NCBI GenBank assembly: GCA_038873795.1
Contig: JAVZDR010000006.1
Location: forward strand, 1-21,298
DNA: 21,298 bases
Origin: Candidatus Micrarchaeaceae archaeon
GTDB lineage: Archaea > Micrarchaeota > Micrarchaeia > Micrarchaeales > CABMGC01
Direction: 5' to 3'
Below the pieces are notes generated by a model, which worked only from the letters and a program-made list of their open reading frames with translations, ran no database searches and was not told the DNA's origin. The position numbers and the translations under genes are program-made. Positions 17,892-18,997 of the stretch are shown here, in pieces (position 1 is the first letter of the stretch; the number at the start of each line of letters is the position of its first letter).

Positions 17892-18123
17892 GTGGTGCGC
17901 GGGTGGCTTACCGTTTTTTAACGGAGGAAGCTCTCCCCATGCAGAGATTGCGAATGCCTAAGGCATAATTCGATACAGAAACGAACCGCTGCCGCACATT
18001 GCCATGACAATACGAGCGTGCGGGTGCGGATGAAACGCATCGATGCGCAATCGGTGAGCATGCAAGGCATATGCCGCTTAGTCGGATGCCACCTAAAACA
18101 GAAGGGAGGCTACGGCGCACCAC
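17892..18123 (+). ncRNA. rnpB: Archaeal RNase P RNA, compact type-M-like
   Basis: Hand-folded: P1 17892-17900/18115-18123; P2 GGTGGC/GCCACC; P3 hairpin; CR-I GAGGAAG; P4 AGC(T)CTCCC/GGGAGGCT; P5 CATGC/GCATG; P7 GATTGCG/CGCAATC; CR-II ACAGAAA; P12; CR-III TGAAA; P15 GGC-ATAT-GCC; CR-V AACAGAA. Confidence 0.95.
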
Positions 18124-18170
18124 ATAATGCTATTTGCTTCCAAATACTGCAAACACGCACGCCAAACCAT

Positions 18171-18190
18171 AAAAAAAGCTTTGCTGTTTT
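18171..18190. terminator. Probable oligo-T terminators between the convergent RNase P RNA and tRNA genes
   Basis: An A7 run (T7 on the minus strand, downstream of the tRNA) is followed by TTTT runs on the plus strand (downstream of rnpB). Confidence 0.45.
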
Positions 18191-18209
18191 GCTGATATAC
18201 CTCATGATT

Positions 18210-18330
18210 TGGCGGGGGCGAGATTTGGACACGCGACCTCTAGATTTCTTAGCAATCATAGCAAAATGCTCATCACTCATAATGCTTGGCATATGAGTCT
18301 AGCGCTCTAACCAGGCTAAGCTACCCCGCC
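18210..18330 (-). tRNA. tRNA with CAT anticodon, most likely elongator tRNA-Met, with a 46-nt intron at 37/38 (intron 18246-18291)
   Basis: GGCGGGG/CCCCGCC-A acceptor; D arm GCTT..GAGC; anticodon stem CTAGA/TCTAG with CT-CAT-A|A; T arm GCGTG-TCCAAAT-CTCGC. Not an initiator (no A1-U72, no GGG/CCC stem). Ile2 identity is not fully excluded. Confidence 0.9.
18254..18283 (-). ncRNA. Putative intron-encoded box C'/D' guide element (antisense ATTATGAGT + D' ATGA + K-turn)
   Basis: 9-nt perfect complement to the spliced anticodon loop, with D+5 falling on C34, followed by AUGA-GCA-UUU-UGC-UAU-GAUU K-turn geometry. Confidence 0.6.
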
Positions 18331-18370
18331 AACTATTATAGAATTATCGGAAATATTATTATTGCTTTCT

Positions 18371-18997
18371 ATGGTGCAAAGAGGCAATGCAGAGATGGTA
18401 AAGGCCCTTGTTGAGGAGGGCGATGCCGACGAAAAGGTTGCCAGGGCAATGCTGAAATTTGACAGGAAGGACTTCTTGCCAGAGAGCGAAAAGGAAAATG
18501 CGTATGTGGATGTGCCACTGCCAATAGGTGATGGCCAGACAACATCAGCACCAAGCATAATAGCATTTATGCTGAAGAGCCTTGAACTACGCAAAGGCAT
18601 GAAGGTGCTGGAGGTCGGCACAGGCACTGGTTATCAGACCGCATTGCTCTCAGATCTTGTGGGGAATAGCGGTTCTGTAATAAGCATGGAAATATCAAGG
18701 GTCATTTTCATGTTTGCATCGCAGAACATAAAAGCCCACAAGATAAGCAATGTCAAGCTCGTAAATGCCAATGCACTAGTAGCATACAAGCAGTATGCGC
18801 CATACAACAGGATAATATTCTCAGCGGCAATGAAAAGGCTTGATGAGGATGTGGCAATGGCGCTTGTAGATGGTGGCATAATGGTAGCACCAATCGGCGA
18901 TTTCTTCGGCCAATATCTGTACAAGATAACAAGATCTGGAAACAGCCTTGAAAAGGAGGCGTTGCTACCAGTGGCGTTCGTAAGCATACTGCCGTGA
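18371..18997 (+). CDS. pcm: Protein-L-isoaspartate O-methyltransferase
   Basis: R..F.P, AY.D.PLPIG.GQT.SAP, VLEVGTGTGY, APY.RI, GG.MV.P.G and V.FV motifs. The track uses TTG 18362; ATG 18371 is also plausible. Confidence 0.95.
   Translation: MVQRGNAEMVKALVEEGDADEKVARAMLKFDRKDFLPESEKENAYVDVPLPIGDGQTTSAPSIIAFMLKSLELRKGMKVLEVGTGTGYQTALLSDLVGNSGSVISMEISRVIFMFASQNIKAHKISNVKLVNANALVAYKQYAPYNRIIFSAAMKRLDEDVAMALVDGGIMVAPIGDFFGQYLYKITRSGNSLEKEALLPVAFVSILP

Follow-up and report, generated by a model that had tools for sequence, protein, structure and literature searches.

An intron of elongator tRNA-Met in Micrarchaeota resembles a one-kink box C/D-type guide aimed at its own wobble base

Wobble-base methylation of tRNA-Met helps to separate AUG from AUA codons. 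Ribose-methylation guides are thought to require two kink motifs, both of which Tran et al. in 2003 reportedly found necessary for efficient methylation, and whether the particle contains one RNA or two has been debated for more than ten years. To our knowledge, natural archaeal guides have two K-turns. Among the closest described systems, as far as the accessible text of the sources goes, are the euryarchaeal pre-tRNA-Trp introns that act as guides, namely Pyrococcus sR50 and that of Haloferax volcanii (PMC7994747, PMC4033218), and the stand-alone guides for Cm34 of elongator tRNA-Met, described as haloarchaeal sR-tMet (Joardar 2011, PMC4033218), as a Pyrococcus sRNA (PMC7994747) and, in human, as SNORD97/SCARNA97 (PMC6601510). 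The intron of the Nanoarchaeum equitans elongator tRNA-Met has been described as a stable, abundant RNA of 66 nt with a six-GC hairpin and C/D elements that is potentially an sRNA of the C/D box type (Randau 2012, Genome Biol 13:R63, PMC3491384); this is the intronic Nanoarchaeum case to which the initial annotation of the present locus had alluded, and, by the accessible part of that account, it is real. Synthetic half-mers of box C/D RNA, with one K-turn and a guide, have been studied by crystallography with L7Ae, Nop5, fibrillarin and a target strand (Xue 2010, as reported in PMC6239191), and in the available text of the latter source the crystallised half-mer mono-RNP is deemed inactive because the target lies far from fibrillarin, and a di-RNP would be needed for catalysis (PMC6239191).

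The locus considered here lies within a stretch of 21,298 nt from Candidatus Micrarchaeaceae archaeon (GCA_038873795.1, contig JAVZDR010000006.1), the whole of which is referred to below as the window; the assembly comprises 600 kb in 55 contigs and is 94% complete. An elongator tRNA-Met(CAU) gene with an intron occupies 18210..18330 on the minus strand (Rfam tRNA model, 50.1 bits), with the 5' exon at 18330-18292, the 3' exon at 18245-18210 and, between positions 37 and 38, an intron of 46 nt at 18246..18291 (UGCCAAGCAUUAUGAGUGAUGAGCAUUUUGCUAUGAUUGCUAAGAA). The Rfam tRNA model match (18330-18210, minus strand) places a 48-nt insert in the anticodon loop; with E allowed to rise to 10, the interval 18150-18400 still gives no Rfam family other than tRNA (RF00005). 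ARAGORN missed the gene in its default mode and called it Ser when introns were allowed. The tRNA is an elongator, not an initiator, because it carries G1-C72 and an anticodon stem CUAGA/UCUAG without GGG/CCC, and because a separate initiator tRNA (C5:14517-14592, with A1:U72 and GGG/CCC) and a tRNA-Ile(UAU) (C3:38854-38929) are present elsewhere in the genome. TiaS was not found in this 94%-complete genome, and the same family was matched in 4/4 archaeal control genomes. AUA appears to be decoded by tRNA-Ile(UAU), and Nanoarchaeum has been described likewise, with tRNA-Ile(UAU) for AUA and without TiaS. The concern that C34 might be agmatinylated, which the initial annotation had raised, consequently does not apply to this tRNA; with tRNA-Ile(UAU) and no TiaS, a strictly AUG-reading wobble base of tRNA-Met would matter more.

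Within the intron, whose bases are numbered from i1 and whose features all lie on the minus strand, the guide consists of bases 7-17 (GCAUUAUGAGU, 18275..18285; helix 96.5% paired). Bases i12-17 (AUGAGU) pair with U36-A31, i11 is bulged, and i10, i9, i8 and i7 pair with A37 and with intron bases 1, 2 and 3, respectively, to give a hairpin duplex of about 10 bp with one bulged base. Intron bases 1-6 (18286..18291) supply the 5' strand of this small hairpin (UGC) and the CAA loop, and would tether target and guide in cis. The wobble base C34 (18295), which is the predicted target of 2'-O-methylation, pairs with G14 of the intron (18278), five bases upstream of the D'-like box. The initial annotation had read this C:G pair from the single sequence, and it is found in 54/54 aligned orthologues with its spacing fixed. 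A single unpaired spacer, i18 (18274; G 42, A 8, U 4 of 54), separates the guide from the D'-like box AUGA (NNGA, 18270..18273), of which G21 and A22 are present in 54/54 and the first two bases vary (i19: A 50, G 2, C 1, U 1; i20: U 38, C 12, A 3, G 1; n=54). There follow a capped canonical K-turn stem, GCA-UUU-UGC (18261..18269), and a 3-nt bulge UAU with a C'-like GAUUG (NRU-GA, 18253..18260), in which i33 is A in 43 and G in 11 of 54 sequences and i34-36 are UGA in 54/54, with one gap that is an alignment artefact. Every base of the intron layout first proposed, from AUGA at 18273-18270 through GCA/UGC, UUU, UAU, the G.A/A.G pairs and U.U to A-U, proved to be correctly placed. The last of these, the 4b:4n pair beside U.U, had been interpreted as compensatory, in agreement with A-U in 20 sequences and G-C in one wherever both bases are present.

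Compared with an archaeal box C/D RNA, the intron contains a K-turn in which a D-type and a C-type box (xUGA and UGAUxx in such RNAs) make tandem sheared G.A pairs, both boxes being off consensus (AUGA and AUGAUUG), and an antisense guide just upstream of D' with the target at N+5, in the form of 6 bp, a bulge and 4 bp. There is only one kink in place of two box motifs (terminal C/D and internal C'/D') about 12 nt apart, and neither the intron nor the exons or flanks conserve a further RUGAUGA/CUGA pair. Because the two-motif feature is lacking, the element is better regarded as working like a C/D guide than as a plain member of the box C/D family. Two other ways of drawing the boxes were considered and rejected. 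GUGAUGA (i16-22) as box C with AUGA (i33-36) as box D would place i18 and i19 within the box, where they vary (UA, GC, UC and GU at the level of the class, against invariant G21, A22 and G23), and no terminal stem is possible; the K-turn register originally proposed is the conserved one. A terminal box D was also considered at the CUGA near the 3' end of longer relatives, but CUGGG or CGGG can stand in its place; from the comparison of these relatives the series CUGAG/CUGGG/CGGG appears to be read better as a 4-bp splicing helix with CUCA.

Minimum free energy folding of the single sequence is unremarkable, with z-scores of -1.69 for the precursor and -0.03 for the intron. The initial annotation had also observed that AUUAUGAGU (18283-18275, intron bases 9-17) complements A31-U39 in the spliced tRNA without a mismatch, which is the case in this genome; this 9-mer complement occurs 2 times in the 21-kb window compared with 0.20 expected, and the word by itself is weak evidence. 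The case rests on comparison with relatives.

A BLAST search with the 131-base region against 61 genomes (its own and 60 relatives, in three families) recovered full-length intron-bearing tRNA-Met orthologues in 57/61 genomes of the order, a tally which includes two genomes flagged as unpublished; the four genomes lacking a full-length match are 84-93% complete. From 57 aligned sequences, removal of one from an unpublished genome gave alignment A1 with 56 rows, and removal of the very divergent L060 and L061 gave alignment A2 of the anticodon arm and intron with 54 rows. Across these 54 sequences of the order, in which the introns measure 39-51 nt, i13-17 are UGAGU throughout except for one A at i16 (conserved in 53), i21-23 are GAG in 54/54, and there are no indels between the guide and the GA. 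Over the structure formed by the anticodon stem, the guide hairpin and the kink stem, 92.7% of cells are standard pairs and both-sided changes occur at 10/19 pairs; the observed pairing values were reached by 0/500 shuffles, and slid-partner controls were 24-42% paired. The pairs of the K-turn stem are G-C in 51/51, C-G in 50 with one U-A and, at the third position, AU 26, CG 9, UA 5 and UG 1. RNAalifold, with no structure supplied, recovered the same hairpin and kink stem. Chance is excluded, since the guide, GAG and UGA are conserved with fixed spacing and the stem covaries. The comparison supports the suggestion that the intron is a minimal guide of the C'/D' type, with a single K-turn, directed at the C34 of its own tRNA, and guide and K-turn do covary among orthologous introns as that suggestion would imply. 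For the alignment itself, covariation is proof of pairing and would not amount to proof of methylation.

A second case was identified in the intron of tRNA-Ser(UGA), at C3:8322-8446 on the minus strand (locus L063/L064; miscalled Thr by ARAGORN), which has a length of 40 nt and the same numbering as that of tRNA-Met. Here i12-17 (UCAAGA) pair with U31-A36, i18 is unpaired, a consensus CUGA stands at i19-22, and a short loop is followed by AUGAUGC; A14, at N+5, pairs with U34. Full-length matches were present in 58/61 genomes of the order, from which 49 sequences were collected, with one from an unpublished genome excluded and some second copies left out. CUGA and the downstream UGAUG are each found in 49/49, with no indel in the register. 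The wobble base and the N+5 base form U:A in 41 sequences, C:G in 6 and C:A in 2, that is, N+5 is A in all 41 UGA genes, and G in 6 and A in 2 of the 8 CGA genes; the six compensated CGA genes span five genera and two families, and these tallies are counts rather than probabilities, as relatives are not independent. The splicing-helix base opposite position 34 is G in 4/8 tRNA-Ser(CGA) genes. Upstream in the tRNA-Ser introns, a hairpin changes freely in sequence with its complementarity kept. By its sequence, the tRNA-Ser intron is taken as an independent second instance of the one-kink guide design; since guide and anticodon change together in it, it shows a design that can be carried from one tRNA to another instead of a single oddity. 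No such module was seen by eye in the other listed intron-bearing tRNAs of this genome or in four of one complete relative, from inventories of tRNA introns that are incomplete, the Rfam tRNA model having missed the Ser gene of the complete relative.

The 3' end of the tRNA-Met intron offers the anticodon a different partner. At 18245..18251 (minus strand), UAAG pairs with C32-A35 with one C.A mismatch and is followed by the 3' bulge A-A/A38, the slash marking the splice site; the sequence is UAAG-AA/A here and CGAG-AA/A in another family, with a bulge of the form A-N/A and a last intron base that is A in 48, U in 3, G in 2 and C in 1. Among 51 distinct rows, C32 is paired with G in 51/51 and U33 with A or G in 51/51, and C34 is paired in 23/51. 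Of the 4-bp splicing helix, 3/4 pairs are formed in this genome and 84% of cells are paired overall, and the inner helix of a bulge-helix-bulge is found in only about half of the sequences. Judged on these alignments, the splice-site fold looks like a relaxed form of the bulge-helix-bulge, in which two 3-nt bulges with the splice sites flank a helix of 4 bp. The guide fold and the splicing fold are mutually exclusive, as both use the same anticodon bases. A search of this assembly, which is 94% complete, gave no match to the catalytic domain of tRNA splicing endonuclease (PF01974); the domain is present in 20/20 relatives, including members of the same genus, as frames of about 390 aa with two catalytic-type repeats, and the missing gene is probably an assembly gap. 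The two-repeat enzyme of about 390 aa presumably resembles the broad-specificity endonuclease described for ARMAN archaea. At least 10 tRNA genes of this genome carry introns, and those for Ser GCU, Leu UAA, Thr GGU and Leu CAA (C8:9401-9502, C25:1-101, C18:318-404 and C45:782-878) have non-canonical introns in the D-loop or T-loop, a pattern that fits a broad-specificity splicing endonuclease.

A partial second copy of the tRNA-Met gene was observed at L040 (33-100 of contig C29 in genome G026), about 1.2 kb from the full gene. It runs from the intron hairpin loop through the guide, the kink and the 3' exon to the acceptor end and has no 5' exon; the sequence ahead of it contains two AUGAU words. 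This copy could be a pseudogene, or else a split tRNA gene's 3' half.

Distribution beyond the order was assessed in 151 genomes sampled across the phylum, using a covariance model (R1) built from A2 with a threshold of E up to 0.01. Matches were obtained in 118/151 of the sampled genomes, all listed as belonging to the same class, with 46/46 genomes in family f3, 21/24 in f1, 22/27 in f9 and 0/8 in f11. The pattern UGAGU-N-NNGA-G, the capped stem and RUGA were kept in 20/20 of the best matches outside the order, in which introns reach about 100 nt. A pattern scan of public genomes, informative on distribution only as the pattern forces the motif, returned at least 119 stretches, with most of the listed records titled Candidatus Micrarchaeota or Micrarchaeia. 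The same intron is also carried by a record titled Candidatus Micrarchaeum sp. A_DKE, and members of this class are available in co-culture. Among 19 of the matches listed, the module lay within a tRNA-Met gene in records titled Aenigmatarchaeota, Nanoarchaeota/Nanoarchaeia and Woesearchaeota and in three labelled Methanosarcinales. Pattern matches in Nitrososphaerales, Methanophagales and two bacteria were set aside, being without tRNA context and having the appearance of chance.

The genome encodes fibrillarin (238.5 bits), Nop5 (187.8 bits) and L7Ae (98.5 bits), so that the C/D proteins presupposed by the initial annotation are in place. A regular-expression scan of the genome gave two ordinary two-kink C/D sRNA candidates compared with 0 in 10 shuffles, both stand-alone with full C, D', C' and D, near 2517 of C9 (plus strand) and near 7241 of C20 (minus strand). 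No FtsJ/Trm7-type enzyme was found in the genome, the sole FtsJ-family match being fibrillarin, and one SpoU-family methyltransferase is encoded. Beside the tRNA promoter lies PCMT, a protein-L-isoaspartate O-methyltransferase (18362-18997, plus strand, 178 bits), its weak fibrillarin-family score reflecting the shared methyltransferase fold only. On the other side, an archaeal RNase P RNA of the short form (RF00373, 232 nt, 17892-18123, plus strand, 101.7 bits) is convergent with tRNA-Met, its 3' end lying 87 bases from that of the tRNA. The genes nearby, which encode PCMT, a polyprenyl synthetase and subunit I of a V-ATPase, have no connection with the intron guide.

It is observed that guide and anticodon pair, that a kink stands in fixed register with this pairing, that both are conserved and that the genes for the proteins are present; the reading placed upon these observations here is that the intron probably serves as a one-kink box C/D-type guide that directs formation of Cm34 on the precursor, which would then refold and be spliced. 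Under such a scheme, intron bases 7-17 of the unspliced pre-tRNA-Met would fold back on A31-A37 and the first three intron bases, presenting one base downstream of the duplex a single K-turn made of the D'-like NNGA, the capped 3-bp stem, the 3-nt bulge and the C'-like UGA. L7Ae would bind the kink and recruit Nop5-fibrillarin, and C34 at N+5 would be 2'-O-methylated to Cm34. The anticodon would then re-pair with GAG/UAAG at the 3' end of the intron, an order of events suggested by the competition between the two pairings, and the resulting bulge-helix-bulge-like substrate would be offered to the broad-specificity endonuclease of the lineage for removal of the intron. This reading is favoured because guide, single unpaired base, xxGA, kink and UGA follow one another as in the half of an archaeal box C/D RNA that carries the D' guide, the wobble base standing at N+5, and because box C/D guides of Pyrococcus and haloarchaea are documented to act on position 34 of tRNA-Met, the pre-tRNA-Trp intron being the classic case of a self-guide. 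Counting against it are the lone K-turn, the latitude of the first two D'-box bases, the length of the continuous guide-target helix, at only 6 bp (A31-U36) shorter than in usual guides, one family in which the bases after the C'-like GA are unpaired with the first two D'-box bases, the uncompensated N+5 base in 2/8 tRNA-Ser(CGA) genes, the presence of the SpoU-family methyltransferase, and the splicing endonuclease that was not found in this assembly.

The guide and its target may lie in one molecule, or two precursors may be brought together on one Nop5 dimer. By analogy with the laboratory half-mers, the introns could be natural half-mers that work only as pairs, with two pre-tRNAs on one dimer, each contributing a kink and a guide-target hairpin, and each fibrillarin methylating the target of the other half. 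Once the particle is released, the anticodon would be free to re-pair with the 3' end of the intron, and splicing would thus be gated by methylation. Such an arrangement is put forward because a half-mer mono-RNP places fibrillarin far from its target, which a di-RNP would fix, and it is regarded as possible, if rather doubtful. An intron acting in trans once excised, whether linear or circular, either on the spliced tRNA-Met through the 9-bp A31-U39 match or on other precursors, seems unlikely. The match is perfect in this genome and is formed in most orthologues (35/51 at i11:37, 39 at i10:38 and 42 at i9:39), the 2/8 tRNA-Ser(CGA) genes that keep A at N+5 would suit U34 of a sister tRNA-Ser(UGA), and the pre-tRNA-Trp guide was, by the accessible text of PMC7994747, later shown to act in trans or intramolecularly. 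Against this, the junction-crossing pairs (i11:37, i10:A38 and i9:U39) are paired in 76.8% of cases, no better than the 76.4% in shuffles, whereas pairs specific to the precursor covary: 37:i10 is A-U in 39 of the A2 rows, G-C in 4 and other in 7, i1:i9 is U-A in 40, A-U in 2, G-C in 2, U-G in 2 and other in 4, and i2:i8 is G-C in 48, A-U in 1, G-U in 1 and other in 1. All 4 sequences with G37 have C at i10, which restores the precursor pair and breaks i10:A38, and i9 tracks intron base 1 in the same manner. The perfect 9-mer is accordingly a by-product, as A37 and A38 are alike and the U at i1 and U39 are alike, and the guide pairs with the unspliced precursor. Of the initial annotation's proposal, the complementarity to positions 31-39 and an action on the precursor are supported, and the pairing across the splice junction does not rise above the level of shuffles. 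On this comparative evidence, selection appears to act on pairing with the unspliced RNA and not across the splice junction, with the proviso that a guide acting in trans on a second precursor would form the very pairs that it forms in cis, so that this evidence does not separate the two.

The kink might instead be an L7Ae site with a structural or chaperone role that times or permits processing, beside an ordinary anticodon helix and with no methylation. A structural hairpin beside an L7Ae site would covary likewise, archaeal and eukaryotic tRNA introns often pair with the anticodon, and a lone K-turn is atypical for a methylation guide. The conservation of two exclusive anticodon pairings, one with the guide and one with the 3'-end GAG, points to a conformational switch, and L7Ae is described in the available part of PMC5539422 as binding many non-guide RNAs. 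A purely structural role nevertheless leaves unexplained the exact N+5 wobble base and the one spacer in two unrelated tRNAs, with no indel in 54 and 49 sequences, as well as the full consensus CUGA/UGAUG of the Ser version, and box C/D guides are known to act on position 34 of tRNA-Met in other organisms; a purely structural role is considered quite improbable. A decaying, functionless remnant of a two-kink intron guide, which might be sought in the longer introns of some other families in this class, where they reach about 100 nt, and in the off-consensus D'-like box, is extremely improbable, the invariant core, the compensatory covariation and the occurrence in 118/151 genomes being incompatible with neutral decay.

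If the one-kink guide reading is true, a natural and conserved guide tethered to its target would provide a ready-made minimal system for the question of one RNA or two, and DPANN archaea with genomes of 0.6-1 Mb would keep wobble methylation of tRNA-Met without a separate gene. That guide and splicing pairings compete points to steps in a set order, methylation first and splicing second. Were the precursors instead to work in pairs, very small genomes would possess a built-in quality checkpoint and a living example of the disputed di-RNP geometry.

Apart from the account of Randau 2012 (PMC3491384), the accessible part of the literature, in which several key papers are subscription-only, revealed no description from Micrarchaeota or DPANN of a one-kink guide in an intron of tRNA-Met or tRNA-Ser, and, within the same limit, nothing on the conservation, covariation or spread in Micrarchaeota of a one-kink design or on a tRNA-Ser counterpart. 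That account and the present locus have in common an elongator tRNA-Met, the class of intron position, C/D-type elements and a DPANN host; the two introns, compared by description, differ in length (66 vs 46 nt), and the accessible text on N. equitans names no target, conservation, covariation or N+5 rule, whereas for the present intron the guide-target pairing and the kink have support throughout a class. With the pre-tRNA-Trp guide, as its available descriptions present it, this intron shares a place within the intron of its own target, Cm34 chosen by the N+5 rule, pairing with the precursor and exclusive guide and splicing folds. The pre-tRNA-Trp guide differs in belonging to another tRNA and in having the complete set of C, D', C' and D boxes, with C34 and U39 as its two targets, whereas the tRNA-Met intron has one kink, one guide and one target in less than half the length. 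The pre-tRNA-Trp intron of H. volcanii measures about 100 nt. The stand-alone tRNA-Met guides, so far as their accessible descriptions go, have the same target nucleotide and the same presumed chemistry as this intron; each comes from a gene of its own, has two box motifs and works in trans, whereas here the guide is part of the target transcript. Joardar and colleagues in 2011 are said to have noted that sR-tMet also pairs with exon and intron of the precursor. The half-mers, which in the available text are laboratory constructs, are built of the same parts, one K-turn and a guide, and this intron would be their natural counterpart.
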